The notes: generated from the sequence alone by a model not told the origin. 63,251 nt of DNA, filler included, from Reclinomonas americana ATCC 50394 (GCA_048213135.1; 17 parts of 17 records of this genome joined end to end with filler, not necessarily neighbours in it); one strand, 5' to 3'; shown: positions 1 through 63,251, counted from the first letter of the whole stretch. Numbers and translations: made by a program.

Positions 1-5163
<5,163 letters not shown>

Positions 5164-5232: not shown

Positions 5233-7982
5233 ATGCTATTCGCCAGCAGAGCACACGCTCTGCTGATCGCCCACCATGCAACACGCAACAGCAGTCGCAC
5301 ACTGTTCACGGTGGATCTCACACACAACCTCGCATGCACACACACACACAACGAAACTCCGCTCACATCTCTCCTTTCTGTTGTGCACATGCAGCGGAGT
5401 CCGCATCGCCCTCCAGTGGCCACCATGGGCGTCCTCTTGCAGCAACGATCGTTGATGCCGATGCGCGCCATGCCTCCGAGTGAGAAGATCGACAAGGAGA
5501 TGTCGACGACTGAGCTGGTGGACAAGCTGCGTGGGTTTCTGTGGCCCGAACGCTCCGATCTGCGTGTGCGTGTGCTGGCGGCACTCGGCTTGCTGGTTGT
5601 CTCCAAGGTGCGTTTTTCAATGTCGCGCGCTCTCTCTCTCTCTCTGTGGATGCGAGGGAAGGGGATCGTCAAGTATGCAATCGCAGGGTGCCAACGTGGC
5701 GACTCCGTTCTTCATGAAGTACGCGGTGGATGAGCTGTCTACGAACACAGACACTGTGGTTGCACTGGCGGCGTCGCCCATTGCGTTGATCGTCGGCTGT
5801 TGCGTGACGCGACAAGGCAAGACCACGCTCACTCTCGTTTCGCCCTCACTCACTCTGTGCGCGTGCAGATGGTGCGGCTCGCTCACTGGCCTCGCTGACC
5901 AACGAGGCGCGTAATGCGGTGTACGGCAAGGTGGCACAGGCCTCGATTCGCAGCATGGCCGATCGCGTGTTTGCGCACTTGCATGCGCTGGATCTTGGCT
6001 TCCACCACAATCGCCAGACGGGCGCCCTGGCGCGGGTGATTGATCGCGGAACGCGCGGCATCAACTTTGTGCTGCAGGCGCTCGTGTTCAACATTGCCCC
6101 GACGATTCTGGAGATTGCACTCGTGTGCACGATCTTAGTGCGTTGCGAGCGAGGGTGCAGTGCCGAGGTCGCCGGAGACTCATCCGTGCATGCGTGCAGG
6201 GACTGAAACTTGGTCCGCTGTACGCTGCCACCGCTCTCGGTACAGTCGCGGCCTACACGGCATTCACGCTCGCGGTGACGCAGTGGCGGTTCGTGTGGGG
6301 GCAAGACGGAAGAAGGTGCATGTTTGCTGCTCACCCTTGCTACTCCACAGGACCAAATTCCGCCTGCAAATGAACGACATGGACAACAAGAGCTCTGCCA
6401 AGGCCATTGACTCGCTGATCAACTACGAAACCGTGAAGGTGAGGCAGTGTGTGCTCCCTTATGCATCTTCCAGCTCGCCTCCCGAACATGCTCATTTTCG
6501 TGCACGCAGTACTTTGGCAAGGAGTCGCACGAGATCAAGCAGTACGACCGCTACCTGCAGGGCTACGAGTCTGCATCGCTGAAGACGGTCACCAGCCTGT
6601 CGCTGCTGAACTTTGGACAGAGTGCGATCTTTTCTGTCGCCCTCACGGCACTGATGGTCATGGCGGCCAATGGCGTGCGCTCGGGTGCGTCTCGATGCAT
6701 ATTGAGTACCACGTGCGCGCGTTTCCTCACTGTTGGCGTGCAGGCACGATGAGTGTCGGCGACGTGGTGATGGTGAATGGTCTGCTGTTCCAGCTCTCCA
6801 TTCCACTCAACTTTCTCGGCTCCGTGTACCGCGAAGTGAAGCAGTCGGCGGTGGACATGCAAAACATGTTTGCGCTGCTGAAAGTGGAGCCCTCTGTCAA
6901 GGCAAGTCGAAGCCACACAGATGAGCAGCAGAGGGCATTCACTTATGTGTTTTTTTCGCACTGCAGGATCGTGTCGACGCCGCCAAGTTGGAGTTCCGTC
7001 GCGGTGACATTGAGTTCGAGGACGTGCACTTTGGGTACGACGCGAATCGCTCGATCCTCAACGGCCTCTCCTTCAAGGTGCCAGCCGGCCAGACATTTGC
7101 CTTTGTGGGCGCCAGTGGCAGCGGGTTTGTGAAAGTGTGTGTGCAGCCGACTCACTTGTGTGCGTGTGCTGATCGCTGCTGTTTTCGGCAGCAAATCCAC
7201 CATTCTCAAGCTCCTCTTCCGCTTCATGCAACCCGACAAGGGACGCATCCTGGTCGACGGGCAGGATATCTCACAAGTGTCGGTGGCCAGCCTGCGTTCC
7301 CACATTGGTGTGATTCCGCAGGACACGATCTTGTTCAACGACACTGTGCGCTACAACATTGCCTACGGGTCGCCCAAGGATCCGGTGCGCTGAACAACAA
7401 CAACGTCAACAGCTTCTTGCACGTGCACTCTTCTTCTCATCACACGCACACACACAGGCGCAAGTCACAGACATGGAGGTCGAGGATGCGGCTCGGGCGG
7501 CGCGCATTCATGACACTGTGTTGAAGTTGCCGAAGGGGTATCAGTCGGTGGTGGGCGAGCGCGGTGTCAAGTTGTCGGGCGGTGAGAAGCAGCGGGTGGC
7601 GATTGCGCGCACCGTTGCGTCTCTCCTCATTGTTTCATGTCCCTTGGTGTCGCGTGCTGTGAACTCAACAAGAGAGGTGCTGGCTTGGCAGATTCTGAAG
7701 CGACCGCAAATCCTGCTGTGCGACGAGGCCACCTCGTCGCTGGACTCGCACACGGAGCGTGACATAATGCACTCGTTGGCCGAGTTGCGACGCGACTCCA
7801 CGGGCATTTTCATCGCCCACCGATTGTCGACAGTGATGGACTGCGACTGCATTCTGGTGCTGGAGAATGGCAGAGTGGTCGAGTCGGGCACGCACTCGGA
7901 GCTGCTGGTGCAGGGCGGTCGGTACGCGCAAATGTGGTACAAGCAGTTGCTGGCCGACGACGAGGAGGGGGCCAAGAGGTGA
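5233..7982 (+). CDS. ATM1: Mitochondrial ABC transporter ABCB7/ATM1 (Fe-S export); ~10 introns; start codon tentative
   Basis: Spliced product contains [65 protein letters not shown], Walker A GASGSGKST, signature [13 protein letters not shown], Walker [13 protein letters not shown] and IAHRLST. Stop TGA at 7980-7982. Confidence 0.93.
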
Positions 7983-12789: not shown

Positions 12790-12889
12790 NNNNNNNNNNN
12801 NNNNNNNNNNNNNNNNNNNNNNNNNNNNNNNNNTTAATTAATTAANNNNNNNNNNNNNNNNNNNNNNNNNNNNNNNNNNNNNNNNNNNN

Positions 12890-16034: not shown

Positions 16035-16208
16035 ATGAGCAACGTGAAGGTCTGCTTATCGGTCTCGTCTCACTCCACCTTCTGCTTCTCACNNNNNNNN
16101 NNNNNNNNNNNNNNNNNNNNNNNNNNNNNNNNNNNNTTAATTAATTAANNNNNNNNNNNNNNNNNNNNNNNNNNNNNNNNNNNNNNNNNNNNACGGACGG
16201 TACGTACG

Positions 16209-44597: not shown

Positions 44598-47500
44598 ACG
44601 AACAATACGAACGGACTCATGGCCACATTTAACAGGTTCTGTTGTTGATCTGCGGTGCAACTCGTACGCTGCCTTTCATAAGTTCTCACTGCGGTGAGGA
44701 AACTACACAGGCCCACATTTCTGTACATTGACCGCTCGACGGACACGATCTTCACGTTTGATGTGCGTCCTGCACCAACAGCTGCTCTCTCTCTCTCTCT
44801 CTCTCTCTCACGCTGAATTCTCTTCTTTGCTTCCTCGCAGCAATTCGGATTCAAAGTTCGTACAATCACGTCTTCCTCGGCGACGGCCACGCTGGCGGGC
44901 GCAGGCGTCAGTGGAAGCACCGACGGAATGACAACCTCGGCAAAGTTTGCTGGAAGTGTCACTGGAGGATGTCTGGATACGACCAACCAAGTTCTTTATG
45001 TTGCCGATCCTGGTAACAGAACGATTCGCTCGGTACGTTGTGCATGCACATTTCCTTGTTGCGCCATGATTGTCTCACTTCTTCTTTTGTTTGCAGGTGA
45101 CGTACGCCGGCAACGTGGTCAGATACTGCGGTGTCCAGGGAACGTCTGGCACCACTGACGGCAGTTGCACTGTTCCGACTGCCAGGTTCACTACGCCTTC
45201 CGGCATGACGATTAGAGGGACGACCTTGTACGTTGGTACGTATGAAGTGAACCGCACACTTCGGATCTCATTTGTGAATTAGACTCAATTCTCCACACGC
45301 GCAGCGGATAGAGGCACTCACTCCATCCGCGCCATCAACATGACCACTCTCAACGTGACTACATTCGCCGGCGCCACGGCCGGTACTAGCGGTACAAGCA
45401 ACGGCATCGGTACGTTTGCTTTATTGCTTCCTGATTTGCCCATCCTGCATCTGACGCACGTTTAACACAGGCACCTCCGCTCGATTCAACACCCCGCACA
45501 GTATCCTCTACGAGTCGAACCTGGACGCTTTCTTCGTCGCTGATGTTGCGTGATCCGATGCGTGTGGTCGTGTTGAGAAGGGACCGGCGTCTGACTGTGC
45601 ACGCAGCAAAACAACGGCGCGATTCGCATGATCCGTGCAAGTGATACTCTCGTGTCCACATTTGCTGGAGTACCCGGCACTATCGGTCAACAAGACGGGT
45701 CGGCAATCGGTTCTGGCCGGGTATACCATGCGGTGCGCTGATGCTATTGATTCTGTGGCTTCCCTTACTTTTGCCGAGTCCCGCTCACCACCTGCGTGGC
45801 ATGCATGCAGACCTTCATGGTGGTTGATTGGGCCAACTCTCGCCTGGTGTTCACGGACATGGACCAGTATATCATCCGCCGAGTGTCCTTTGGCGGCACG
45901 CGAGCGACTGCATCTCCGTCCTCATCCACCGGCTCGTCTCCCGTGTCCATCTCGGCTGCCGTTTCGGGTCTCATGTCGGGCAGGACGTACTACTATGCGC
46001 CGGTGGCCACGACATCGACGCCAAGCACGGTGTACGGCTCGGTGCTGTCGTTCGCTGCCGGTACCAACGTCGCACCCACTGCCTTGTCTTGCTCCCCTCT
46101 CGGCTACGTCTCTCCATCGACCGCCAACACCAACATCTGCACCATGTCGCCGACGGATGCAAATTCTGGTCAGACCTACACGTACTCGGTGACTGGCGGA
46201 GCCGACATGGCGTCGTTTACAACGAGTGGCGCGATTCTCCGACTTGTGCCAGCTGGTATCACCAGCGCTTCATTGGTGGTGTCGGTGACTGTCACCGATA
46301 ACGGTGGACTCTCGTACGCGGCAACGTTTACTATCGGTGTGTGTTTTTTTGTGCCATTCAGTGTCTCCCTTCTCGTGAAAAATTGCCTCCCGCTGACGCT
46401 CGTGTGACGTGCCTGCACAGTGCGCAACCAGGCGCCAACGGCCGTAAGCTTGTCGCCCGCGAGCTACGTGTCACCGAGCACTGTCAACCAAGTCATCGGC
46501 ACCCTGAGCACCACCGACGGCGACATGGGTCAGACGTACACATACTCGGTGGTCGGTGGCGCCGATGCTGCTTCGGTGACCATCTCCGGTGGCAACCAGC
46601 TGCAGTTCGCAGTCGCCGGCGTCACCAGCACCATGACAGTCATTGTTCGGACGACTGACAATGGATCGCCAGCGGCAACGTACGACCAAACATTCACTAT
46701 TGCCAGTGCGTTTCTGTGTTTCTTTGTTGCATCGTTTTCTGATTGTCGAGTCACTCGGTCATCTGAGCATCTCTTTTTCAATCGTGCAGCTGGCGCGGGA
46801 AATAGCGCCCCCACCGGCGTATCTCTCAGTGTGTCGTCGTATGCACCTCCGAGCACCGTCAATCAAGTGATTGGCACGTTGAGCTCCACCGATCCGGATG
46901 TCGGCCAGACGTTCACCTACTCGGTGGTCGGTGGCGCCGACGCCGCGTCTGTCACCATTGCCAGTGGTAATCAGCTGCAGTTTGCCGCCGCCAGCGTCAC
47001 GAACAACTTGACAGTGATTGTGCGGACGACGGACGACGGCGTGCCAGCACTTTCGTTTGACCAGACTCTGACGATTACAGGCATGTATTAGTCTCAACAA
47101 GAGGCGAGCTCGTAACTGATGCTGATCGACCTTCTGTTGTGCAGCGCAAAACAACGCACCAACTGATATTGTGCTGTCGGCAACGACGTACGCGCCGCCG
47201 AGCACGACGAATCTCGTCGTTGGCAGTCTGTCGACCACAGATGCCGACAGCAGCTGGCAGTCGTTCACGTATACGATTGTGGGCGGAGCGAATGCCGCCA
47301 CGTTTAACATTTCTGGCACGCAGCTGCGAATCACAGCAGCAGGCGTCACCGGTGGTGGGTATTTGGTGACTGTGCGCTCGACGGACAGTGGCAATGGCTC
47401 GCTGTCCTTTGACAAGACGTTCACAATCAACGAAGGTCTGTCGCCTTTTTCGCGTAACTTGATTGTCACTTGTAGTTCTTATGCGTCGTGTGGCAGCCAA

Positions 47501-50500
47501 TGTCGCACCGACGGACATTGCACTGTCGGCAACGACGTACACGCCGCCGACTACTGCCAATCTCGTGATTGGTACTCTGTCGACCACCGATGCCAACTCT
47601 GGCCAGACGTTCACGTACACGATCGTGGGTGGAGCGAATGCAGCCATGTTCAACATCTCGGGCACGCAGCTACGCATCACGACGGCCGGGCAGAATGGAA
47701 CGGGCTTGGTGGTGATTGTGCGATCGACTGACAGCGGCAGTGGATCGCTGTTCTTCGACAAGACGTTTACGATCAACGAGGGTCCGTGTTCCTACTTGGC
47801 AAAGTCTCCATTCCTCAGCTGTGTCTCACTTCTTTGTTTCTTCCCGCTGTCCAGTTAATGTCGCACCAACGGACATTGCACTGTCGGCGACGACGTACAC
47901 GCCACCGACCACGGTCAATCTCGTGATTGGTAACCTGTCGACAACAGACGCCAACTCGGCTCAGACATTCACGTACACGATTGTGGGCGGCGCGAACGCG
48001 GCCATGTTCAACGTCTCTGGCGCGCAGCTGCGCATCACGACAGCGGGACAGAATGGAACTGGCCTGGTGGTGATTGTGCGATCGACTGACAGTGGCAGTG
48101 GATCGCTGTTCTTCGACAAGACATTCACGATCAATGAGGGTCTGTGTCCCTACTTGGCAACATCTCCATTCTTCAGCTGTTTCTCACTTCTTTGCCTTCT
48201 TCCATCGATCAGTGAATGTCGCACCAACGGATATTGCACTGTCGGCGACAACGTACACGCCGCCTACCACCACCAATGTCGTTATTGGTAACCTGTCGAC
48301 CACCGATGCCAACTCTGCTCAGACGTTCACGTACACGATCGTGGGCGGAGCGAATGCGGCCATGTTCAACATCTCTGGCGCGCAGCTGCGCATCACGACA
48401 GCCGGTCAGAATGGAACTGGCTTGGTGGTGATTGTGCGATCGACAGACAGCGGCAGCGGATCGCTGTTCTTCGACAAGACATTCACAATCAACGAAGGTC
48501 TGCTCTCTAGTTTGTTGCCTCTTGCTGACTGCTTCTAACTTCCCTTCTTCTTTTTCTGTTCAGCGAATGTTGCACCGACGGATATTGCACTGTCGGCGAC
48601 AACGTACACGCCGCCTACCACCACCAATGTCGTTATTGGTAACCTGTCGACCACCGATGCCAACTCTGCTCAGACGTTCACNNNNNNNNNNNNNNNNNNN
48701 NNNNNNNNNNNNNNNNNNNNNNNNNTTAATTAATTAANNNNNNNNNNNNNNNNNNNNNNNNNNNNNNNNNNNNNNNNNNNNGCGATCGACAGACAGCGGT
48801 GCATCACCTCTGTTCTTCGACAAGACATTTACGATCAGCGAGGGTTCGTATTATCTTGAAGCAGCGTGTTCTCAGATGCGGTTTCTCATTCGCCCGGTTT
48901 CTTTTGTTCAGTTAATGTCGCACCGACGGACATTGCACTGTCGGCGACGACGTACACGCCGCCGACCACTGCCAACCTCGTGATTGGTAACCTGTCAACG
49001 ACCGATGCCAACTCGGCTCAGACATTCACGTACACGATTGTGGGCGGAGCGAATGCGGCCATGTTCAACATCTCAGGCGCTCAGCTGCGCATCACAGCAG
49101 CGGGTGTCATCGGTGATGGGTATCAAGTGACCGTGCGATCGACTGACAGCGGCAGTGGATCGCTGTTCTTCGAGAAGACATTCACAATCAACGAAGGTGT
49201 GTTGCCACAAGCAATATGCAGGTGACTTTACTCATCATATACGTGTCGTGTACAGTGAGCATTGCGCCAACGGACATTGCGATTTCGTCGTTGACATATG
49301 CGCCGCCGACCACCGCCAACGTTGTGGTGGGCACACTGTCAACGACGGACGGCAACTCGTGTCAGTCGTACACATATTCGATCGTTGGTGGGGCGAATGC
49401 AGCCATGTTCAACATCTCAGGCTCGCAACTGCGTATCACGACAGCCGGGCAGAATGGAACGGGGCTGGTGGTGATTGTCCGATCCACTGACAGTGGCAGC
49501 GGATCGCTGTTCTTCGACAAGACATTCACAATCAACGAAGGTGTGTGACGCGATTCTTGCTCTGTACGTGCAGTGTATAGAGAGAATGAGTGTGAGTGCT
49601 TCATCGGCGTGGTTACTCATTGACTATCATTACAGCCAATGTCACGCCCACGGACATCACGATATCGATTTCGGCGTACACGTTGCCGACGACTGCCAAC
49701 ATGGTTGTGGGAAACCTGTCGACAACCGACGGCAATTCGTGTCAGACGTACACGTACACGATTGTGGGCGGAGCCAATGCGGCCTTGTTCAATATCTCTG
49801 GCGACCAGCTGCGCATCACTGCGGCTGGGCAGACGGGCAGTGGACTGGTGGTTATCGTCCGCACCACCGACAATGGCAGTGGGTCGCTGTTCTTTGACAA
49901 GACGCTTATCATTGACGAAGGTACGACCAAGATAGTTTTGATTGAGTTGTTGTTGCGTTTGGCGACTTATGAAGCGTTGCGAATGACGCACAGCCAACGT
50001 CCCTCCGTCGGATATTGCACTGTCGTCGACGACGTACACGCCGCCGACCACTGCCAATGTCGTGGTGGGCACTCTGTCCACCACAGACGGCAACTCGGCG
50101 CAGACGTTCACGTACGCAATTGTGGGCGGAGCAAACGCGGCCATGTTCAACATCTCTGGCGCGCAGCTGCGCATCACGACAGCTGGACAAAATGGAACGG
50201 GGCTGGTGGTAATTGTGCGATCGACAGACAGCGGTGCATCACCTCTGTTCTTCGACAAGACATTTACGATCAACGAAGGTTCGTATTATCTTGAAGCAGC
50301 GTGTTCTCAGATGTGGTTTCTCATTCACTCGTTTCCTTTTGTCCAGTCAATGTCGCTCCGACGGACATTGCACTGTCAGCGACGACGTACACGCCACCGA
50401 CCACCGCCAACCTCGTGATTGGTAGCCTGTCAACGACCGATGCCAACTCGGCGCAGACGTTCACGTACACGATTGTGGGAGGGGCGAATGCGGCCATGTT

Positions 50501-53500
50501 CAACATCTCTGGCGCTCAGCTGCGCATCACGACAGCTGGGCAGAATGGAACTGGGCTGGTGGTGATTGTGCGGACGACTGACAGTGGCAGTGGGTCGCTG
50601 TTCTTTGACAAGACATTCACGATCAACGAAGGTCAGTCGCCGTTTGCTTCACACACTACCTGCCGTTCTCACCCAGTCACCTTCTTCTATCGTGCAGTGA
50701 ATGTGGCGCCGACGGATATTGCACTGACATCGATTACGTATGCACCACCGTCAACAGCCAACATTGTCGTCGGATCGCTCTCGACAACCGATGCCAACTC
50801 GTGCCAGACGTACACGTACACGATTGTGGGTGGGGCGAATGCTGTCTTGTTCAACATATCGGGCGACCAGCTGCGCATTACTGCGGCTGGACAGACTGGC
50901 AGCGGACTGGTGGTGACTGTGCGATCGACCGATAGTGGCAGCGGGTCGCTGTTCTTTGACAAGACGCTTGTCATTGATGAAGGTACGGTCATGGTGGCAT
51001 CACTAATCGTCACAACCTTCGAAGAGGCCTCATCTTCTCTCGTACTTTCGCAGCCAATGTTTCCCCGACGGACATTGCACTGTCGGCGACGACATACGCG
51101 CCACCGACCACTGCCAATCTCGTGATTGGTAACCTGTCAACGACGGACGCCAACACGGCGCAGACATTCACGTACACAATCGTGGGCGGAGCGAATGCGG
51201 CAATGTTCAACATCTCTGGCGCACAATTGCGCATCACGACAGCCGGTCAGAATGGAACTGGCTTGGTGGTGATTGTGCGATCGACAGACAATGGTGCATC
51301 ACCTCTGTTCTTCGACAAGACATTTACGATCAACGAGGGTTCGTACTGTCTTGGAGCAGCGTGTTCTCAAAGGTGGTTTCTAATTCGCTCGTTTTCTTTT
51401 GGTCAGTGAATGTCACACCGACGGATATTGCGCTGTCAGCGACGACGTACACGCCTCCGACCACCACCAATCTTGTGATTGGTAGCCTGTCGACAACCGA
51501 TGCCAACTCAGCGCAGACATTCACATACACGATTGTGGGTGGGGCGAATGCGGCCATGTTCAACATCTCTGGCGCTCAGCTGCGCATCACAACTGCTGGC
51601 CAGAATGGAACTGGCTTGGTGGTGATTGTGCGATCGACGGACAGCGGCAGTGGACCGCTATTCTTTGACAAGACATTCACGATTAACGAAGGTCCGTGGC
51701 GTCATGGATCTCGTAGTTATCGCTTTCTTCACTCACTGCTTCGTTCTTCAATGTTGACCAGTCAACGTTGCACCAACTGATGTTGTGCTATCGGCTACCG
51801 TATACGTTCCGCCGACCACAGCCAACCTTGTTGTAGGAGGTCTGTCAACGACGGACGCCAATTCGTGTCAGACGTACACATACACGATTGTGGGCGGAGC
51901 GAATGCGGCCATGTTCAACATCTCCGGCACACAGCTGCGCATCACGACAGCCGGTCAGAATGGAACCGGCTTGGTGGTAATTGTGCGCACCACCGACAGT
52001 GGCAGTGGATCGCTGTTCTTTGACAAGACATTCACGATTAACGAAGGTCTGTGGCGTCATGGATCTTGTAGTTATTGCTTTCTTCACTCACTGCTTCGTT
52101 CTTCAATGTTGACCAGTCAACGTTGCACCAACTGATGTTGTGTTGTCGGCTACCGTATACGTTCCGCCGACGACAGCCAACCTTGTTGTGGGAGGGCTGT
52201 CAACGACCGATGCCAACTCTGCTCAGACGTTCACGTACACGATTGTTGGTGGGGCCGATGCGGCCATGTTCAACATCTCGGGCACGCAGCTGCGCATCAC
52301 GACGGCCGGTCGGAATGGAACTGGCTTGGTTGTGATTGTGCGGACGACGGACAGCGGCAGTGGATCACTGTTCTTCGAGAAGACATTCACGATTAACGAA
52401 GGTCTGCGACGTCATGGATCTCGTTGTTCTCGCTTTCTTTACTCACTGCTTCGTTCTTCAATGTTGACCAGTCAACGTTGCACCAACTGATGTTGTGTTG
52501 TCGGTTGCCACATACGTCCCGCCGACGACTGCCAACCTTGTTGTGGGAGGTCTGTCAACGACGGACGCCAATTCGTGTCAAACATTCACGTACACGATTG
52601 TGGGCGGAGCGAATGCGGCGCTGTTCAACATCTCTGGCTCGCAGCTGCGTATCACGACAGCCGGTCAGAATGGAACTGGCTTGGTGGTGATCGTCCGATC
52701 AACTGACAGTGGCAGTGGATCGCTGTTCTTCGACAAGACATTCACAATCAACGAGGGTTTGTGCTGCGATTCTTGCGTTTTGTGTGCAGTGGAGAGAGAG
52801 AGAGAGAGAGAATGAGTGTGAGAGGTCACTTATCGACTATCCTGGCAGCCAATGTCACGCCCACGGACATCACGTTGTCGGCAACACAATACGTGTTACC
52901 GGCCACCGCAAACATGGTTGTAGGTGTGCTATCGACAACTGATGTCAACTCGTGTCAGACGTACACGTACTCGATTGTGGGCGGAGCGAATGCTGCCTTG
53001 TTCAACATCTCTGGCGACCAGCTGCGCATCACTGCGGCTGGGCAGACGGGCAGTGGACTGGTGGTTATCGTCCGCACCACCGACAATGGCAGTGGGTCGC
53101 TGTTCTTTGACAAGACGCTTATCATTGACGAAGGTACGACCAAGATAGTTTTGCTTGAGTTGTTGTTGCGTTTGGCGACTTATGAAGCGTTGCGAATGAC
53201 GCACAGCCGACGTCCCTCCGTCGGATATTGCACTGTCGTCGACGACGTACACGCCACCGACCACTGCCAATGTCGTGGTGGGCACTCTGTCCACCACAGA
53301 CGGCAACTCGGCGCAGACGTTCTCGTACACGATTGTGGGCGGAGCGAATGCGGCCATGTTCAACATCTCTGGCGCGCAGCTTCGCATCACGACAGCCGGG
53401 CAGAATGGAACGGGCTTGGTTGTGATTGTGCGATCGACTGACAATGGTGCATCACCTCTGTTTTTCGACAAGACATTTACGATCAACGAAGGTATGTTTT

Positions 53501-56500
53501 GTGTTTTGTTTTTTTCTCCGCTGACAGGTGATCGTAGCTCTTATGCGGCGCATCGCAGTAAATGTTNNNNNNNNNNNNNNNNNNNNNNNNNNNNNNNNNN
53601 NNNNNNNNNNTTAATTAATTAANNNNNNNNNNNNNNNNNNNNNNNNNNNNNNNNNNNNNNNNNNNNGTGGGCGGAGCGAATGCGGCCATGTTCAACATCT
53701 CTGGCACGCAGCTGCGCATCACAGCAGCCGGTCAGAATGGAACTGGCTTGGTGTTGATTGTGCGATCAACCGACAACGGCAGTGGATCGCTGTTCTTCGA
53801 GAAGACATTCACGATCAACGAAGGTGTGTGCTGTAGATCTGTGTTGTGCATGTGCCTGGTCACTCATCGACTACCATTACAGCCAATGTCATGCCCACGG
53901 ATATCACGTTGTCGGCAACACAGTACGCGTTGCCGGCCACCGCAAATATGGTTGTTGGTGTGCTATCGACAACGGATGCGAACTCGTGTCAGACGTACAC
54001 GTACTCGATTGTGGGCGGAGCGAATGCTGCTTTGTTCAACATCTCTGGCGACCAGCTGCGCATCGCTGCGGCTGGGCAGACGGGCAGCGGACTGGTGGTT
54101 ATTGTGCGCACCACCGACAATGGCAGTGGGTCGCTGTTCTTTAATAAGACGCTTATCATTGACGAAGGTACGACCAAGGTAGTTTTGATTGAGTTGTTGT
54201 TGCGTTTGGCGACTTATGAAGCGTTGCTAATGACGCACAGCCAACGTCCCTCCGTCGGATATTGCACTGTCGTCGATGACGTACACGCCGCCGACCACTG
54301 CCAATGTCGTGGTGGGCACTCTGTCCACCACAGACGGCAACTCGGCGCAGACATTCACGTACTCGATTGTGGGGGGAGCGAATGCGGCCATGTTCAATAT
54401 CTCTGGCGCGCAGCTGCGCATCACGACAGCCGGGCAGAATGGAATCGGCTTGGTGGTGATTGTGCGATCGACGGATAACGGCATCGGATCATTGTTCTTG
54501 GACAAGACGTTCACGATCAACGAAGGTATGTTTTGTGTTTTGTTGTCTCTGCTGACAGGCGATCGGTTATCTTATGCGTTCCGTGGCAGCGAATGTCGCA
54601 CCGACAGACATTGCACTGACGGCCACGACATACACACCACCGACCACCGCCAATCTTGTGATTGGTAGCCTGTCAACGACCGATGCCAACTCGGCGCAGA
54701 CGTTCACGTACACGATTGTGGGTGGAGCGAATGCAGCCATGTTCAACATCTCTGGTGCCCAGCTGCGCATCACAACTGCGGGTCAGAATGGAACCGGCTT
54801 GTTGGTGATTGTGCGGACGACGGACAGCGGCAGTGGATCGCTGTTCTTTGACAAGACATTCACAATCAACGAAGGTTTGTTGCTGCAGGCGATTCGCAGG
54901 TGATTTTGCTCGTCGTGTGTCTCACGCACGTCTCCTGTACAGTGAATGTTGTGCCGACGGACGTTGTGCTTTCGTCTGTGACGTACTTGCCGCCGACCAC
55001 GGCCAATGTGGCTGTCGGTTCGCTTTCCACCGTGGACGCCAACTCGTGCCAAACGTACACGTACACAATCGTGGGTGGAGCAAATGCTGCCATGTTCAAC
55101 ATCTCTGGCGCCCAGCTGCGCATCACAACCGCCGGGCAGAATGGAACCGGTTTGGTGGTGATTGTGCGATCGACGGACAGCGGCAGTGGATCGCTGTTCT
55201 TTGACAAAACATTCACGATCAACGAAGGTGTGTGCTTGCAGATCTATGTTGTGTGCATGTGCTTGTCCACTCATCGTCGATATTTGCAATTGCAGCCAAT
55301 GTCGTACCCACGGACATCACAATATCGATCGCGGCATACACGCCGCCGTCAACATCTAATATGGTTGTTGGCAGGCTGTCGACGACCGATGCCAACTCGT
55401 GCCAGTCTTACACGTACACGATTGTGGGCGGAGCGAATGCTGCCGTGTTCAACATCTCTGGCGAGCAGCTGCGCATCACTGCGGCTGGGCAGACGGGCAA
55501 TGGACTGGTGGTTATTGTGCGCACCACCGATAGTGGCAGCGGATCGCTGTTCTTTGACAAGACCCTTGTCATTGACGAAGGTACGGAGCAAGATAGTTTG
55601 ATTGAGCTGTTGTTACGTTCGGCGACTTATCAAGCGTTGCGAATGACCCACAGCCAACGTCCCTCCGTCGGACATTGCACTGTCGACGACGACGTACACG
55701 CCGCCGACCACTGCCAATGTCGTGGTGGGCACGCTGTCAACGACAGATGCCAACGCGAGCCAGTCGTTCACGTACTCGATTGTTGGTGGAGCGAATGCGG
55801 CCATGTTCAACATCTCTGGNNNNNNNNNNNNNNNNNNNNNNNNNNNNNNNNNNNNNNNNNNNNTTAATTAATTAANNNNNNNNNNNNNNNNNNNNNNNNN
55901 NNNNNNNNNNNNNNNNNNNCGCCCAGCTGCGTATCACGACAGCCGGACAGAATGGAATCGGCTTGTTGGTTACTGTGCGATCGACAGACAGCGGTGCATC
56001 ACCTCTGTTCTTCGACAAGACTTTTACGATCAGCGAGGGTTCGTACTGTCTTGGAGATGCGTGTTCTCATCTGTGATTTCTCATTCACTCGTTTTCTTTT
56101 GTTCAGTGAATGTTGCACCGACGGACGTTGCACTGTCGGCAACGACGTACACACCGCCAACCACTGCCAACCTCGTGATTGGTAACCTGTCGACGACCGA
56201 TGCCAACTCGGCGCAGTCGTTCACGTACACGATTGTGGGCGGAGCGAATGCGGCCACGTTCAACATCTCAGGATCGCAACTGCGCATCACAACCGCCGGT
56301 CAGAATGGAACGGGCTTGGTGGTGATTGTGCGATCGACGGATAACGGCAGTGGATCGCTGTTCTTCGACAAGACATTCACGATCAACGAAGGTTAGTTGC
56401 TTGTTTTGTCACTCGCGTGTTAGCTGTTGCAATGACAACGTATCCATCCCTCTGTAGTGAATGTTGCGCCGACGGACATTGCGATTTCGTCTGTAATGTA

Positions 56501-59500
56501 CGCGCCGCCGACCACGGCCAATGTCATCGTCGGTTCGCTTTCCACCGTGGACGCGAATTCGTGTCAGACGTACACGTACACGATTGTTGGTGGAGCAAAT
56601 GCTGCGATGTTCAACATCTCTGGCGCTCAGCTGCGCATCACAACCGCCGGTCAGAATGGAACTGGCTTGGTGGTGATTGTGCGATCGACGGACAGCGGCA
56701 GTGGATCACTATTTGTCGATAAGACATTCACAATCAACGAAGGTGCGTGCTTGCAGGCTTTTTGCTATTTTTGTGCTTGGTCACTCATCATGAGGACACA
56801 CAATTGCAGCCAATGTCGTACCCACGGACATCACGATATCAATGGCAGCGTACACGCCGCCGACCATACCTAATATGGTTGTTGGTTCGCTGTCAACGAC
56901 GGACGCGAATTCGTGCCAGACATACACATACACGATCGTTGGCGGAGCGAATGCTGCCTTGTTCAACATCTCTGGCGACCAGCTGCGCATCACCGCGGCT
57001 GGACAGACAGGCAATGGACTGGTGGTTATTGTCCGCACCACCGACAATGGCATCGGATCGCTTTTCTTCGACAAGACCCTAGTCATTAACGAAGGTATGG
57101 CAAATGGCAAATGGCATCGTTCTTCGTTGCGCCTTTGCAGCCTAAATCATCTGCGTCAATGCGNNNNNNNNNNNNNNNNNNNNNNNNNNNNNNNNNNNNN
57201 NNNNNNNTTAATTAATTAANNNNNNNNNNNNNNNNNNNNNNNNNNNNNNNNNNNNNNNNNNNNAGATGCTAATTTGTATGTGGTCGTACAGTCAACCTTC
57301 CTCCTACGGACATTGCGCTGTCGGCGACCACATACGCGCCGCCGACCACCACCAATCTCGTGATAGGCACTCTGTCTACGACGGACGCCAACACGGCGCA
57401 GACGTTCACGTACACGATTGTGGGCGGTGCGAGTGCGGCCATGTTTAACATCTCCGGCGCGCAACTGCGCATCACAAGCGCAAACCAGAGTGGAAATAAC
57501 TTGGCGGTGACTGTGCGATCAACGGATAATGGCGCAGGGTCTCTGTTTTTCGAGAAGACCTTTGTTATCAACGAAGGTATGATCTGGGTCTTACTGCTGT
57601 TCGTTCCTGTGACACTCACCGATTACTTCGCTGATTTTCGGAATAGCAAATGTCGCACCGAGTGATTTGCTGCTTTCTTCTGCAACGTACGTGCCGCCAA
57701 CATCGGCAAACTTGGTGATCGGTTCGCTTTCCACCGTGGATGCCAACTCGGGCCAGACATTCACGTACACAATTGTGGGTGGAGCCAATGCGGCAATGTT
57801 CAACATCTCTGGCGCGCAGCTGCGCATCACAACTGCTGGGCAGAATGGAACTGGTTTGGTGGTGATTGTGCGGACGACGGACAGCGGCAGTGGATCACTG
57901 TTCTTCGAGAAGACATTCACGATCAACGAAGGTCCGTGGCGTCATGGATCTCGTAGTTCTCGCTTTCTTCACTCACTGTTTTCGTTCTTAATTGTTGACT
58001 AGTCAACGTTGCACCAACTGATGTTGTGCTATCGGCTGCCACATACGTCCCGCCGACGACAGCCAACCTTGTTGTAGGAGGTCTGTCAACGACGGACGCC
58101 AATTCGTGTCAGACGTACACATACACGATTGTTGGCGGCGCGAATGCGGCCATGTTCAACATCTCTGGCACCCAGCTGCGCATCACAACAGCTGGTCAGA
58201 ATGGAACTGGCCTGGTGGTGATTGTGCGATCGACGGACAGCGGCAGTGGATCGCTGTTCTTCGACAAGACATTCACAATCAACGAGGGTTTGTGCTGCGA
58301 TTCTTGCGTTTTGTGTGCAGTGGAGAGAGAGAGAGAATGAGTGTGAGAGGTCGCTTATCGACTATCCTGGCAGCCAATGTCGCGCCCACGGACATCACGT
58401 TGTCGGCGATGACGTACACGCCACCGACCACCTCCAATCTCGTGATTGGTAGCCTGTCAACGACCGACGCCAACTCGGCTCAGTCGTTCGCGTACACGAT
58501 TGTGGGCGGCGCGAATGCTGCCATGTTCAACATCTCAGGCGCGCAGCTGCGGATGACTGCAGCTGGCATTGGTGGCAACGGGTACCAGGTAACTGTGNNN
58601 NNNNNNNNNNNNNNNNNNNNNNNNNNNNNNNNNNNNNNNNNTTAATTAATTAANNNNNNNNNNNNNNNNNNNNNNNNNNNNNNNNNNNNNNNNNNNNGTG
58701 CCGACGGTGTACGCCAACACTGTGGTGGGCGTGCTGACGACGGCAGACGTCAACACGCAAGAGACATTCACCTATGCGATTGTGGGTGGAGCCGATGCGG
58801 CAGCCTTTGATATTGTTGGCGGCAATCTTGTACTGCGGTCGGCAGGCGCGTCGGGCACTGGCCTGCAGGTCAACGTGCAAGTGACGGATTCGAATGGATT
58901 GCAGTACACCAAGAGCTTTGTGATCAACCAAGGTAAGCGTGAGGTCGGTGCCAGGACACGTCGACGAGCCAACGCGTCCTCACTCCTGTGGCCCCATCGT
59001 GCGCAGCAAACTCACCTCCGACATGGATCAATCTCACGAGCACCAGCTACACGACACCGACTGCCGCACCAAATGTCGTGGTGGGGACATTGAGTTCTGT
59101 GGACGGTAATTGCTGCCAGACGTACACGTATACGATTACGGGAGGCGCACAGCAAGCACTCTTCAACATTTCCGGGTCACAACTGCGGCTGACTGCAGCC
59201 GGTCAGACGGGAAGCAACCTCGAAGTTGAGGTGCAGGTGGACGACGGCAACGGAGGCACCTATCGGCAGACATTCTTGATCTCTGAAGGTGAGAGTATCC
59301 GTGCGCATGTTCACGACAGTGCAGCAGCGTGTTGCCTTCATGCTCACACCGAGGTGTGCCGTCGTCTTGTGCGCAGGCAACGGCAACGCGACCGATATTC
59401 TCCTGTCAAGTAACCAATACACGCCGCCGACGGCCACACCAGGCGTGGTTGTCGGCAGCCTCAGTACCGTGTGCAGCAACGCCGGCAAGACCTTTGTGTA

Positions 59501-61938
59501 TTCTGTTGTCGGCGGTGCTAATGCTGCACTGTTCGGGATTGCTGGCTCCAACCTGGTGCTGCTGTCGGCTGGCCAGTCGGGTACCCATCTGCTTGTCACC
59601 GTGCGTGCCAGCGATGCCACCGGCGGGACATTTGATAAGACATTCACAGTTCGCGAGAGTTGCGTATGCCGCTGTGTGTTTGGTCAGCCAGGAGGGCGAG
59701 TGCTAATGTGTTCCTACTCCTCCTTGCACGTACAGGGAATGTGGCGCCGACTGCCGTGAGCTTGTCGGCGTCCACGTACACTCCTCCGACTGGAGCAGCG
59801 CACGCCGTCATTGGCACTCTGTCGACCACAGATGTAAACACCGGCGACTCGTTCACGTACCAGATCGTGGGTGGAGTGGACAGTGCGCTGTTTGAGATTG
59901 CCGGCTCGCAGCTGCGGTTCGTGGCGGCCGGTCAGCGCGGCAGCAACTTGAAGGTTGCAGTGCAGACTACGGATGCTGGTGGCGCCAAATATGCACAACT
60001 GTTTACGATCAGTGGCGGTGAGCTTGGTTTTGCGTGCTGTAGCGAATGAGCAAGTGATCGGCTTACATGTATTGTTTCCCTGCTCGCGTGCATCTCTCTG
60101 TCCATTGCAGCGACTCTCGCTCCGACGGACATTACGCTGTCGGCGGCGCAATATGTACCGGCGACCGGACTGAGCAACGTGGTCATAGGCGTGCTGTCAG
60201 CAACGGACGTCAATGCGCAGGACACCTTCACGTTTTCGATATCCGGTGGTCCCGATGGCGCACTGTTTGACATTGTTGGATCCAGTCTGGTGCTTCGCAA
60301 CCCACAACTCGCGGGCGATAACCTGCAAGTGGCTGTGCGAGTTGCAGATAGCTCGGGCAATACATTCTTCAAGACGCTGACTGTCAATCAAGGTGCGTGT
60401 TTCTGTAATGCGTGTTCGTGCGCGGCTGTACCTTTTGTCTCACGTGCCTTCGCCTGCTTTGCAGCCAATGTGTCTCCGACGGATATTTTGCTGTCTTCGA
60501 CACGATACGCACCACCCCTGGCCACGGGGTCGACTATTGGCCTGCTGAGCTCTGTGGACGACAATTGTTGCCAATCGTTTGTGTACACGGTTGTCGGTGG
60601 CGCCGACCAGGCCAAGTTTGCGATTGTCGGCAACGAGTTGCGGTCAGCCGTGGCCGGCTTGACGGGCAACAATCTGCAAGTGCAAGTCCAGACAAACGAT
60701 CAGCATGGTGGCACGCTGACAAAGACATTCACTATCAACGAAGGTGTGTGGGGGGTGCGCGCGTGATGCTTTTCGGTTGCAAGTGTAGCTCAAACCCACG
60801 TGCGACGCAGCCAACGTGGCGCCGACCAACATCTCGCTTTCGGCCAACACGTACACGGCACCGACGGGCGCGGCGAATGTGGTTGTCGGAACGCTGTCTG
60901 TCACCGACGCGAACACTGGAGACTCGCACTTGCTGACCTTGGTGGGTGGTACGGACATCGGCCTGTTCAACATTTCGGGGACATCGCTGCGCATCAGTGC
61001 GGCCGGTCAGCGGGGATCTAGTCTGCGAGTGATTGTGCGTGCACAAGACAGCGGCGGCGCGACAGTGGACAAGTTGTTTACGATTGTGGACAGTTGCGCT
61101 GGCGTACGCGTGGGTGAGGGTGGTGGGTTGTCGATGCGCTTACTGTGTGTTTCCCTGTTGAATCCAACAGCACCGACGGCTCCGACGGACATCACCATCA
61201 CGGGACTAACGTACCTGCCGCCGACCGCCACAGGCAATGTGATGATTGGGTCGCTGGTGGCAGTGGACAGTAACGCGACGGACTCGTATGTGTTCTCTGT
61301 GCCGCCCATGTCGCCAGTGGACATTGTCGGCAATCAGCTGCGAGTGACCAACGCGGGAACGTCAGGAGCGCTGAGCTTCACGGTGACGGTGACGGATGCG
61401 GCAGGCTTGACATTCTCCAAGATGTTCTCAATCCAGGAGGGTGAGTGGTGCACTGCAAGGCGCCAACGCGTCGACGTTAGCTGGCACTGATTACAGTTCT
61501 CCCCCACAGCCAATGTCCCTCCAAGTGATGTGACAATCTCGTCGGCCAAGTATACACTTCCAGCAGCGATGAATGCTGTGGTTGGAGTATTGTCGGCGGT
61601 GGATAGCAACTGCTGTCAGACGTACACATATAGCATCGTGGGCGGCGCCGATGCAGCCGTGTTCAACATCAGCGGCAACCAGCTGCGTCTGAATGGAGCT
61701 GCCGGTGCGACTGGCGCCGATCTGGTGGTGATTGTGCGGGTGGACGACGGAATGGGCGGGACATATGACAAGACGATGACGATTACTGCTGGTTTGTGTG
61801 GGTATTTTTCGACACTAGGAAGTCAGACTTGTTGGGGGGCAGATAGTGTGTATTTGTATGTGTGTGCTTGTATTTTTACCCGAACTGACGTTGCCTTGCA
61901 GCGAATGCGGCTCCGACGGACATTGTGCTGTCGAGTAT
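44598..61938 (+). CDS. Giant extracellular protein: NHL beta-propeller + short FN3-like segment + ~45 cadherin-like ~95-aa repeats, one per exon; both ends lost in gaps
   Basis: NHL motifs include LYVADPGNRTIR, ARFTTPSGM, ADRGTHSIRAI and ARFNTPHSI. VSGLMSGRTYYYAPVAT follows. Repeat consensus: NVAPTDIALSATTYTPPTTANLVIGxLSTTDANSAQTFTYTIVGGANAAMFNISGAQLRITTAGQNGTGLVVIVRSTDSGSGSLFFDKTFTINE, with a phase-1 intron after each copy. Confidence 0.9.
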
Positions 61939-62039
61939 NNNNNNNNNNNNNNNNNNNNNNNNNNNNNNNNNNNNNNNNNNNNTTAATTAATTAANNNNNN
62001 NNNNNNNNNNNNNNNNNNNNNNNNNNNNNNNNNNNNNNA

Positions 62040-62530
62040 AAAACTGGAGGTGAGGGCGATTGTGAGAGAATGAGAACCGATGTGCGAGATGCAAGATGCA
62101 GGAGGAGAAGTGTCGTGGGTCGGAGATGTAGTAGAGGAAGGAAGAGATGTGAAAAACTCGAGCTGTGCGAGCGGATAGTGGATTGATTGTAGGATGAGAG
62201 TATCGATAGCCAGAGGGAAGAAAGGAAAGTGGTTATGAAGAACAGGCTGAGAAGAGGAGAAGAACAAACAGTGGGTCTGAAATTGTGTTGGCCAAAGAAG
62301 AGAGGGCGATTGTGAGCGAATGAGCGAGACACAAGATGCCGAAGACGTGTTGCGGGCCAGAGATGCAGTAGAGGAAGGAAGGGGTGTGCGCATGTGTCCA
62401 AATGTGTGGAGAGCCAGAGCCGTGCGTGAGCTGTTCCTATGGCGGATAGCGGAAGAGGATTGATTGTAGGATGAAGGAAGAGTGTCGACAGTCAGAGAGT
62501 GGTCGTGAAGAACAGGCTGCAGCGTTGGGA
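62040..62530. repeat. Two diverged ~250-bp purine-rich tandem units, probably intronic
   Basis: GAGGGCGATTGTGAG at ~62052 and ~62302. GGATTGATTGTAGGATGA and TGAAGAACAGGCTG each occur twice in the same order. Confidence 0.7.
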
Positions 62531-62603
62531 ATGTGTTCGAAGCAGCCAATGCTGGGAAGAGATTTTCTGTGTGTATACTCAACCGGGTTCTGTCGCATTG
62601 CAG

Positions 62604-63217
62604 CCCGCCGCCCACGTGTACAAGCCCGTCAAAGAGGTGCATCTGCAGCATGTTGCGCTCGGCCATGACACGGTCCTGGGATTCGGCGTGGGACTGCATG
62701 TTGTGCGAGCAGTGGAGGGCGTGTCGGCGTATGCTGCAGTTGCACACCCGTCAAAAGTGTGTGTGCGTGGACGACGTGTGAGCTTACATTGCTCTTTGTC
62801 GTCGATTCTACTCGTTTGTTGCAGCCCGTACTCGGCATGCAGGCGTCTCCATCGCTGGTCGTGCTTGATCGCGTGCTCTTTGTCAACTGCGCCAAGACAG
62901 TTGAGACTGATCCGACGCTGAGCGACGCGAATGCAACATCAGCCGTGTCTGTGGAGCGACGCGGCGGCACCACCGAGAGCACCCTCTTGCTTCCACACGG
63001 TGCAGCATACGGAAAGGAAATTGCGGCGCAAGTGGACAGCGGCAACGCTGCCGGCTCGTCCATTGCGCAGCTGTGGCGTCGTGCTCTGCGGCGCAATCTG
63101 CCGTTCGCTTTCAAGATTGCTGGTCGCTTTATGTGCGTCATTTTGGCTGTGGCCATGTCGGTGGCCACCGTGACTACCATCACCAAATTCCGCACTCAAG
63201 AGGAGGACATGGCGGTG
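62604..63217 (+). CDS. Two internal exons of an unknown protein with one hydrophobic segment; possibly the membrane-proximal end of the cadherin-like giant protein
   Basis: Open frames PAAHVYKPVK...HPSK and PVLGMQ...FMCVILAVAMSVATVTTITKFRTQEEDMAV, bounded by AG/GT and ending in G|GTGAGT. Confidence 0.45.
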
Positions 63218-63251
63218 GTGAGTATTTCATGTGGGCGCGAGAGTGGAAGGA

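Follow-up and report, generated by a model that had tools for sequence, protein, structure and literature searches.

The stretch of Reclinomonas americana ATCC 50394 DNA considered here (GCA_048213135.1; 63,251 bases, this whole length being called the window) holds, between positions 44,598 and 61,938, a long series of short and similar exons. The question that this locus raises is whether these exons belong to one gene and, if so, what kind of protein it encodes, how the repeat array grew, and from where the repeated domain was derived. The best explanation, and in our estimation a probable one, is that a single nuclear gene of very large size, present in the assembly as six ordered pieces, encodes at least 46 tandem domains of predicted cadherin fold in a eukaryote rich in introns. 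The window is composed of 17 separate contigs, each of 1.2-8.5 kb, joined by 16 identical spacers (N44-TTAATTAATTAA-N44; 4158-4257, 12790-12889, 16093-16192, etc.), and anything spanning a spacer is not continuous DNA. The array is found in exactly six of these contigs (44598-48681, 48782-53566, 53667-55819, 55920-57163, 57264-58597, and 58698-61938), all of them coding on the + strand, and the G+C content of the array part is ~50-57%.

The repeats were delimited in two ways. A pattern search recovered 40 repeat starts, none of them outside the six contigs or on the - strand, and a hidden Markov model (HMM) built from 27 canonical repeats, with which the whole window was searched, recovered 46 significant pieces, all on the + strand and all in 46066-61784; elsewhere in the window this model gave a single match, at E=5.2. 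After joining the pieces across the 55819/55920 contig break and counting a stub at 61902, the array comprises 46 repeat units of ~95 amino acids (aa), and the coding sequence assembled amounts to 13,065 nucleotides (nt), i.e., 4,355 aa. Exactly 285 nt is the length of 27 repeat exons, each preceded by AG and followed by GT, while the 38 complete single-repeat exons are all multiples of 3 (285 nt in 28, otherwise 270-291 nt). The first two bases of each complete repeat exon complete a codon and its last base opens the next one, which corresponds to phase 1 on both sides. The 41 array introns, of 59-110 nt, are all phase 1 and follow the GT-AG rule in 40 cases and GC-AG in one; the only GC donor is that of the intron at 47081-47144 (GCATGT...AG). 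Their G+C content is 0.49 vs. 0.57 in exons, and reading through them breaks the frame or meets a stop codon in 37 of the 41. When the 41 junctions are translated, the linker proves regular: in most cases ...T-I-N-E is followed by A or V and next by N-V-A-P-T-D... The repeat exon is, thus, a symmetric 1-1 module with one domain per exon: single exons encode 38 of the 39 complete repeats and the one rejoined across 55819/55920, the exception being repeat 1. The first-pass annotation of this DNA had described about 45 repeats, exons of ~285 nt, phase-1 introns, and a product of more than 4,000 aa, figures that agree with those obtained here. Its description of one exon for every repeat stands for 38 of the 39 complete repeats and fails for repeat 1, which shares the exon 45811-46336 with a blade and an FN3-like piece.

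The fold of the repeat was approached through structure prediction. The best AlphaFold2 model of one repeat, with an alignment of 17 repeats as input, reached a predicted local distance difference test score (pLDDT) of 90.6 and contains seven strands. In an exhaustive VIA-align search of 48,161 PDB representatives, the top 50 matches of this model were all extracellular cadherin (EC) domains, with Z scores of 8.9-10.9 and root mean square deviations of 2.1-2.9 Å over 83-94 of 94 residues. Foldseek also listed cadherin EC domains, with E values of 2e-3 to 3e-2 (best 2.3e-3), except for one fragment of SraP. Judging from this model, the repeat would clearly have a cadherin EC fold, and the cadherin-like nature attributed to it in the first-pass annotation is supported by a top 50 made up of cadherin EC domains only. 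At the sequence level, Pfam came closest with Big_9, which one divergent repeat matched at E=0.013, and the profile of 17 repeats, compared with all PDB sequences, matched protocadherin-15 only, at a non-significant E=1.1. Grouping of the repeats with canonical holozoan cadherins, the finding that would have spoken against a bacterial-type module, was not observed as far as it can be tested, i.e., by this best PDB value of E=1.1 and by the lack of any match to the Pfam Cadherin family, PF00028. Weak Pfam rows for Beta-tre_PLH30, HigB_toxin, UL40, and Peptidase_S6 were far under the cut-offs and were rejected as noise from a T/S/G-rich composition. When a repeat was used as query in a protein-language-model Atlas and cadherin clusters were left out, unnamed clusters and He_PIG/Big_9 clusters were retrieved, the taxa of which are uninformative.

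Whether such a domain would bind calcium can be judged from the residues that occupy the ligand positions. Beyond the motifs LDRE and DxND, an early glutamate and D-x-D are further calcium-ligand motifs of cadherins. In the repeats of the window, E is found in the first 22 residues in 0 of 38, D-x-E in 0 of 38, D-x-D in 3 of 38, and D-x-N in 34 of 38, and the linker is devoid of N-E/D-x-P. By comparison, 1,227 full-length repeats of 229 other relatives hold an early E in 1,115 cases, D-x-E in 1,056, D-x-D in 874, and N-E/D-x-P in 879, so that the acidic ligand motifs are kept in ~70-90% of the repeats of these other relatives. LDRE and DxND serve to define true cadherins in the Pythium ultimum genome paper (PMC2926784). 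By this definition, the repeats of the window would fall outside the true cadherins, as far as their calcium-ligand motifs can be read from sequence.

The relatives of the repeat are numerous. Of 1.84 billion representatives searched with the 17-repeat profile, 13,841 proteins matched at E<=0.001, and the ten highest total scores correspond to proteins of 1,686-5,688 aa with 17-34 matched repeats. Two of these ten carry an organism name and both are bacterial (Silvanigrellaceae and Chitinophagales), each being annotated as 'cadherin domain-containing protein'. PF00028 is present in 9 of the 9 scannable proteins of the top ten, with E values of 1.9e-92 to 4.2e-230, and several of them add CHU_C, Por_Secre_tail, dockerin, or RTX domains; these secretion tails suggest that the bacterial relatives are secreted or exposed at the cell surface. 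With one repeat as query, a word-based search gave 105 matches with 33-54% identity, covering 89-100% of the repeat, and every organism-named match among them (20 of 20) is bacterial. Single repeats compared by BLASTP with the protein P0001 show 38-45% identity, at E values of ~1e-12 to 2e-15. The bacterial style of the repeat sequence, as perceived in the first-pass annotation, is confirmed by this degree of identity to giant bacterial proteins bearing PF00028 and by the exclusively bacterial origin of the named matches.

However, the best matches of single repeats are found in two euglenid proteins, which bears on the proposal of the first-pass annotation that a bacterial module was acquired by this lineage. 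When the fetched proteins are ranked by their best single repeat, P0063 (95 bits) and P0146 (85 bits) come before the bacterial ones (82 bits or less). The 90% cluster of P0063 includes Eutreptiella entries (EukProt/MMETSP, UniRef), and P0146 is a Euglena longa entry of EukProt. The repeat period of both is ~91-93 aa vs. ~100 aa in bacteria, and PF00028 has no match in either of them. Since their match to the window is confined to the repeat region, long C-terminal parts being unmatched, P0063 and P0146 are relatives of the repeat and not orthologues of the gene. The repeats of the window and of the euglenids have in common an N-V-x-P start (N-E-x-P in bacteria), Y-x-P-P where bacteria have hydrophobic-x-E-N, D-x-N instead of D-x-D, a 3-residue deletion, a 2-residue deletion that removes the bacterial D-F/Y-E, and a linker shorter by two residues.

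The same division was recovered in a maximum likelihood tree of 71 repeats (97 columns), the rows of which were 19 of the 38 complete exons of the window, 5 full-length euglenid repeats, and 47 others, drawn from 25 proteins that are bacterial or unnamed. The 47 bacterial rows are split from the 24 eukaryotic rows with an ultrafast bootstrap of 100 and an SH-like approximate likelihood ratio test (SH-aLRT) of 97 (95 in a quick tree), and none of the sampled bacterial repeats falls inside the eukaryotic group. Rows of the window and of the euglenids are intermixed; the euglenid repeats are nearest to the divergent 3' repeats of the window, at weak support, and the nearest bacterial rows are those of P0071 and P0218, which are likewise without the 3-residue insert. 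Metagenome contigs scanned with the euglenid P0063 gave no locus, and a scan with the alignment of window repeats gave 15 loci, all of which show bacterial-type motifs and, around the match, a frame of 299-2,741 aa without interruption, and none of which is a eukaryote-type relative. As judged from their sequences, the repeats of the window and of the euglenids are one subfamily, related to and yet distinct from the cadherin-type repeats of giant bacterial proteins. Because the euglenid proteins share the derived features, a direct and recent bacterial origin in this lineage is not established. A more tentative proposal, which we hold to be possible and somewhat less probable than its contrary, is that an old transfer of a bacterial repeat gave rise to a eukaryotic family lacking the calcium ligands, represented by the window and the euglenids, and that in this lineage a single repeat flanked by introns was later multiplied, exon and intron together, into a giant stalk. 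Openly accessible literature, available largely as titles and abstracts, yielded no account of such euglenid or protist cadherin-like proteins.

The DNA of the array retains traces of its growth. The 27 canonical exons are 68-94% identical (median 78%), and the ten other canonical repeats in our alignment A1 have 76-90% protein identity to its first row. Over the 351 exon pairs, the median nonsynonymous divergence (dN) is 0.125, the median synonymous divergence (dS) 0.872, and the median dN/dS 0.135, with every pair below 0.5; therefore, the repeats are old, with near-saturated silent sites, and under purifying selection. Homology extends to the introns. The one before 49994 shares 99% identity with that before 53207, 97% with that before 54241, and 90% with that before 55654; among the introns before 51762, 52117, 52472, and 58003 identity amounts to 91-96%, and its median for all intron pairs is 58%. 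The first four, each of 73 nt (49921-49993, 53134-53206, 54168-54240, and 55581-55653), are 90-99% identical, above the exons that precede them, which suggests, at the level of sequence, a recent block duplication or gene conversion that included introns. Moreover, clustering of the exons gives the order AAAABCDAEDAFFFCDCDAGHAGHIJF, in which blocks such as C-D-A and A-G-H recur. The homologous introns, the recurring blocks, and the identical intron site and phase in all 41 cases indicate that the duplication unit was an exon plus an intron, often several of them, and by parsimony the intron would have been in place before most of the amplification. Tandem duplication may, thus, have enlarged the array by exon-plus-intron units as well as by blocks of several exons, and homogenisation would have been stronger in the middle than at the edges. 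The amplification of symmetric 1-1 exons proposed in the first-pass annotation is, in turn, supported by a phase-1 intron at every repeat boundary and by homologous introns of up to 99% identity.

Upstream of the repeats there are six + strand exons, bordered by AG and GT, that give a single open frame of 383 aa when spliced. The first (44841-45032; AG before, GTACGT after, open spliced frame) encodes NHL-like blade 1, and one or more exons upstream of it are missing. The second (45097-45235; AG/GT borders, continuous frame) encodes most of blade 2, and the spliced read continues with the end of blade 2 and the start of blade 3 (45305-45409). The middle of blade 3 (45471-45544) is followed by the donor GTTGCG at 45545, the sole donor that keeps the frame open, and the spliced read then passes through the end of blade 3 and the start of blade 4 (45607-45720). 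The sixth is a composite open exon of 526 nt (45811-46336), which contains the end of blade 4 (to ~45894), the FN3-like half (~45895-46053), and repeat 1 (46066-46336; HMM E=1.7e-21). The four blades recur with a period of ~57 aa, each opening with G-x-G-x-x-G-x-x-D/N-G and having hydrophobic-Y/F-V-A-D ... I-R as its core, a combination that we take to be the NHL-repeat consensus. Five exon-sized pieces of 34-85 aa, which as unspliced fragments are short queries, gave no NHL row in Pfam at E up to 10. As a lead only, the clusters nearest to blade 1 in the protein-language-model Atlas are NHL (PF01436) and TEN_NHL (PF25021), at 0.96-0.97 with 183-194 shared features. A pattern search found no further blade or earlier exon in the window. 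Since the first exon starts at an acceptor site and nothing earlier is present, the 5' end is missing, and two further propeller blades are possibly missing with it. An ATG-led mini-exon in 44598-44840, noticed by eye, was discarded as a start, as it is not in frame with the next exon.

The FN3-like piece, of 53 aa, continues into repeat 1 without an intron. It is 38-51% identical over 55 aa to bacterial MYXO-CTERM proteins, where it corresponds to the second half of FN3-like repeats; the matched bacterial repeats are of ~105 aa (PF16656/PF00041; P0367), and BLASTP covers only residues 29-81 of the exon. A whole FN3 domain (PF00041/PF16656) was not matched, Pur_ac_phosph_N being found at E=0.023 with 15.7 bits vs. 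a cut-off of 30. The composite exon had 6 matches among proteins of 308-2,000 aa, none of them sharing the junction of blade, FN3-like piece, and repeat. Hence the three parts of the first-pass reading of this region fared differently: four blades with an NHL-like pattern were found, fewer than the five or six of a closed propeller, and Pfam gave no NHL call for them; the linker is FN3-like in sequence and contains only the C-terminal half of such a domain; and the description of the protein as NHL-tipped is not upheld by a contig with four blades only and no 5' end.

The product of this gene would contain, in order, at least four NHL-like blades, half of an FN3-like connector, and a tandem series of no fewer than 46 domains, each of ~95 aa and of cadherin EC fold. 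It would be extracellular and N-glycosylated, a reading suggested by the N-x-S/T sites, by the signal-like N-terminus of one euglenid relative, and by the secretion tails of the bacterial ones. The 38 complete repeats contain 73 N-x-S/T sites, N-I-S being present in 30 of them and N-G-T in 18; P0372, of the Eutreptiella cluster, shows by eye a hydrophobic, signal-like N-terminus followed directly by repeats; and the P0146 entry opens within a repeat. In the repeats of the window, T, A, G, S, V, and N are abundant and charged residues are few (D+E 6.0%, K+R 3.3%). The protein may function as a long stalk or adhesin that presents a binding module of propeller type; this module, near the N-terminal end, would be the likely binding part, and the chain is expected to be independent of calcium because the calcium-binding residues between domains are absent. 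A cadherin domain measures ~4.5 nm, and a chain of this kind would reach ~200 nm if extended.

The repeat exons, all on the + strand, are distributed over the six contigs as follows. Repeat 1 is followed by three divergent repeat exons, recognised by HMM, borders, and phase (46421-46705, 285 nt; 46790-47080, 291 nt, preceding the GC-AG intron; 47145-47435, 291 nt), then by three canonical exons of 285 nt identified by length and AG/GT borders (47497-47781, 47855-48139, 48213-48497) and by the 5' part of an exon at the contig end (48564-48681, 118 nt, HMM positions 1-40). The second contig starts with the 3' part of an exon (48782-48843, 62 nt, HMM positions 74-94), followed by thirteen canonical 285-nt exons with AG/GT borders and phase 1-1 in 48912-53491 (starts 48912, 49256, 49636, 49994, 50347, 50698, 51054, 51407, 51762, 52117, 52472, 52849, and 53207). 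The third starts likewise with a 3' part (53667-53823, 157 nt, HMM positions 42-94) and continues with five canonical 285-nt exons in 53883-55580 (starts 53883, 54241, 54590, 54943, and 55296). Next comes the exon that a contig end interrupts (55654-55819, 166 nt, HMM positions 1-56; 55920-56038, 119 nt, HMM positions 56-94), followed by three canonical 285-nt exons in 56107-57094 (starts 56107, 56458, and 56810) and, beyond the next break, three more in 57292-58287 (starts 57292, 57647, and 58003), all of these being recognised by length and borders; a 5' part closes the fifth contig (58374-58597, 224 nt, HMM positions 1-75). The sixth opens with the 3' part of a divergent repeat exon (58698-58932, 235 nt, HMM positions 15-93) and contains eight complete divergent exons with AG/GT borders and phase 1-1: 59007-59288 (282 nt), 59377-59658 (282), 59736-60011 (276), 60111-60392 (282), 60465-60743 (279), 60811-61092 (282), 61171-61440 (270), and 61510-61791 (282). 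Five of these eight, those included in A1, are 47-61% identical to a canonical repeat. The first 37 nt of a further repeat exon (61902-61938) are found at the contig end, where the 3' end of the gene is missing; both gene ends are, thus, absent from the assembly.

The six contigs probably represent one gene, and we consider this part of the interpretation quite likely on the evidence of sequence and arrangement. All six are consecutive and in the same orientation, and the interior of the array is devoid of starts, stops, and non-repeat exons. At the 55819/55920 break, 166 nt plus 119 nt add up to exactly 285 nt, i.e., one repeat, both ends being of the same repeat type, and at the 57163/57264 break the intron pieces total 97 nt, inside the range of the other introns. 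The maximum DNA identity between any two canonical exons is 94%, so that the same stretch was not assembled twice in different contigs. Moreover, the repeats diverge at both edges of the array and are near-uniform in its centre: in A1, identity to a canonical repeat is 47-87% for the eight edge repeats (47-61% except for 47145-47435) vs. 76-90% for the central ones, a pattern that fits what one array under unequal exchange would look like. Continuity across all six is likely, and it is proven at one junction only (55819/55920). Long CA/GT and CT/GA dinucleotide runs, which appear in translations as H-T, C-V, and L-S repeats, are present at or near contig ends (4100-4400, 43950-44497, and 44780-44810), and they are the likely cause of assembly breaks.

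A number of points weigh against the interpretation of the locus as one gene for a calcium-independent cadherin-fold stalk. Three of the five contig breaks have no link at the level of sequence, with gaps of undefined size; at 48681/48782, the partial exons on the two sides differ in repeat type, so that either sequence would be missing there or the join would be wrong; and mis-assembly is common in tandem arrays. With regard to the domains, PF00028 gave no row in 7 open reading frames across the NHL-like and repeat exons at E up to 0.1, nor for 7 clean repeats at E up to 10, a range in which HMMER discards most matches above E ~0.1, and Pfam gave no NHL row for the window's own sequence. The four AlphaFold2 models other than the best one reached pLDDT values of 48.7-57.1. 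The tree has no holozoan sequences among its rows and its 47 bacterial rows were chosen by us from the top matches; as it is unrooted and short, it is silent on the direction of transfer. The putative loss of calcium binding is read from sequence motifs whose role is described in the literature, and the location and topology of the product are deduced for a gene whose signal peptide, membrane anchor, start, and stop are all absent from the assembly.

Four other explanations have to be compared with that of a single giant gene. The six contigs might be two or more paralogous genes or a mis-scaffolded repeat family instead of parts of one product of more than 4,355 aa. The three unlinked breaks and the two repeat types abutting at 48681/48782 are what this would predict, and a public contig of 504 nt, only ~95% identical to the exon 45811-46336, implies that a second allele, paralogue, or strain exists. 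This contig, from a 454-type run of 2012, shows 24 differences in 489 nt with respect to 45823-46311 and has an adaptor-like end; it would represent a second allele, a paralogue, or a related strain, and, being wholly within that exon, it is uninformative on splicing and contig joins. Nevertheless, the common order and orientation, the exact 285-nt sum and the in-range intron sum at two breaks, the uninterrupted interior, the 94% ceiling on exon identity, and the divergent edges around a uniform centre all suit a single array, and we regard a plurality of genes as rather unlikely. Far less credible, to the point of being highly improbable, is a decaying or untranslated tandem repeat of pseudogene or satellite-like nature. 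Such a repeat would be consistent with the absence of start and stop codons from the assembly. Against it, 38 of 38 complete exons are open, acceptors are the standard AG in 41 of 41 cases with 40 GT donors and 1 GC, and the median dN/dS of 0.135, below 0.5 in all 351 pairs at a dS of ~0.87, is that of a sequence under constraint.

The two remaining alternatives concern the origin of the repeat and its function. A direct and recent entry of the repeat from a bacterium, followed by intron gain and amplification, would account for the 33-54% identity to bacterial repeats, for the 20 of 20 named matches, and for the FN3-like half, which also matches bacterial proteins best; in addition, the uninterrupted frames of 299-2,741 aa at all 15 bacterial-type metagenome loci mean that the introns are special to the eukaryotic gene. 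It is considered unlikely, however, as the deletions and substitutions recur in two euglenid proteins, which group with the window at 100/97, the sampled tree has no bacterial repeat within the eukaryotic group, and a dS of ~0.87 between repeats speaks against a recent burst. Because euglenid repeats share these features and group with the window, the subfamily either predates this gene or spread between eukaryotes. As for function, the repeats could still bind calcium and mediate classical calcium-dependent homophilic adhesion between cells, given that the cadherin EC fold is present, that one aspartate of the D-x-D site is retained as D-x-N in 34 of 38, and that N-E ends most linkers. This appears improbable for repeats with no early glutamate and no D-x-E in any of 38 cases, and with a linker two residues shorter than that of the bacterial relatives and without their N-E/D-x-P; furthermore, LDRE and DxND are used to define true cadherins in PMC2926784, and no membrane or cytoplasmic part of the window protein is known.

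Among known systems, the euglenid secreted proteins P0063 (the cluster of which includes UniRef100_A0A7S4CZF8, 'SbsA Ig-like domain-containing protein') and P0146 are closest to the window, with the top single-repeat scores, the shared derived motifs, no recognition by Pfam Cadherin, and a position on the same side of the 100/97 split. However, they have 7-9 clear repeats in ~2,000-2,200 aa, long C-terminal parts, and no NHL-like part that could be seen; the named entries derive from transcripts, in which gene structure is not visible. Giant bacterial proteins (PF00028 plus PF17803, Cadherin_4, many with type IX secretion system (T9SS), CHU_C, RTX, or SLH domains) carry arrays of 10-34 repeats, 33-54% identical to those of the window, in 1,300-5,700 aa, and some of them have a beta-propeller beside the array, as P0008 does with its DUF5122 propeller repeats, which resembles the combination of blades and array in the window. 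In contrast to the window, their genes are uninterrupted (15 of 15 loci), their period is ~100 vs. 95 aa, their acidic motifs are kept, they have secretion or anchoring tails of which none is seen in the window, and the split in the tree places them opposite the window repeats. Metazoan and choanoflagellate cadherins, including long ones such as cadherin-23, protocadherin-15, FAT, and CELSR, share the fold and the long tandem arrays, whereas no significant sequence match to them was obtained from the window (PDB best E=1.1; no PF00028); moreover, they have calcium motifs, and the window gene has no known transmembrane or cytoplasmic part.

Outside animals and choanoflagellates, cadherins have been reported in oomycetes (Pythium ultimum and Phytophthora), where they are reported to keep LDRE and DxND and to pass the Pfam threshold (PMC2926784). 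These are likewise cadherin-type repeats in a non-holozoan, and the repeats of the window differ from them in failing on both the motifs and the Pfam threshold. Teneurins also combine an NHL-like propeller with a giant protein of extracellular type, and TEN_NHL clusters are among the Atlas neighbours of blade 1; nevertheless, this is an analogy only, since the window gene has neither a YD shell nor the teneurin-type domain order and passed no test at the level of sequence. The convergence with metazoan giant cadherins and teneurins put forward in the first-pass annotation is, likewise, no more than an analogy. The repeats of the window would be best filed as a eukaryotic branch, devoid of calcium ligands, of the bacterial-type cadherin-like repeat.

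The contigs around the array hold other genes and fragments, all of those described here being on the + strand. Upstream, 38414-41902 and 42003-43700 encode a subtilase (Peptidase_S8, E=1.6e-7) followed by EGF_Teneurin (E=5.3e-15) and other EGF repeats, and near 43650 a hydrophobic stretch followed by R-R-R-R resembles, by eye, a membrane anchor. This looks like a separate gene for a surface protein on the same strand as the array, and the teneurin-like EGF matches of the window belong to it and not to the array gene. WD40 propeller repeats (E=1.9e-27) are found in 476-4157 after a region that Pfam does not name, with short intron-like interruptions, and pieces of an ABC-transporter ATPase (ABC_tran, E=8e-8) in 6443-7982, with best matches of 42-57% identity spread over fungi, animals, plants, and bacteria, so that, within that search, the organism has no close sequenced relative. 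The contig that follows the array (62039-63251) has no repeat and no Pfam match, and contains an open frame with one hydrophobic stretch (62669-63250) that runs off the end of the window. A scan of the window with Rfam gave no match.

Repeats of the cadherin fold have a central role in animal cell adhesion, and how far they extend beyond animals is relevant to the origin of adhesion proteins. The locus described here would add at least 46 such domains in a eukaryote outside the well-sampled groups, missed by domain libraries, devoid of the calcium-binding residues, and with euglenid and bacterial repeats as nearest relatives, and the alignment obtained may be used as a seed to find such repeats in other protists. 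It also offers a case in which the duplication of symmetric 1-1 exons may be traced stepwise through homologous introns and block duplications. Knowledge of animal cadherins is left unchanged by these results, which provide instead a candidate for a calcium-independent stalk of cadherin fold. If the more tentative proposal of an old bacterial transfer is true, this protein would be among the longest surface stalks of protists and would represent an independent, non-animal route to a giant cadherin-like protein.

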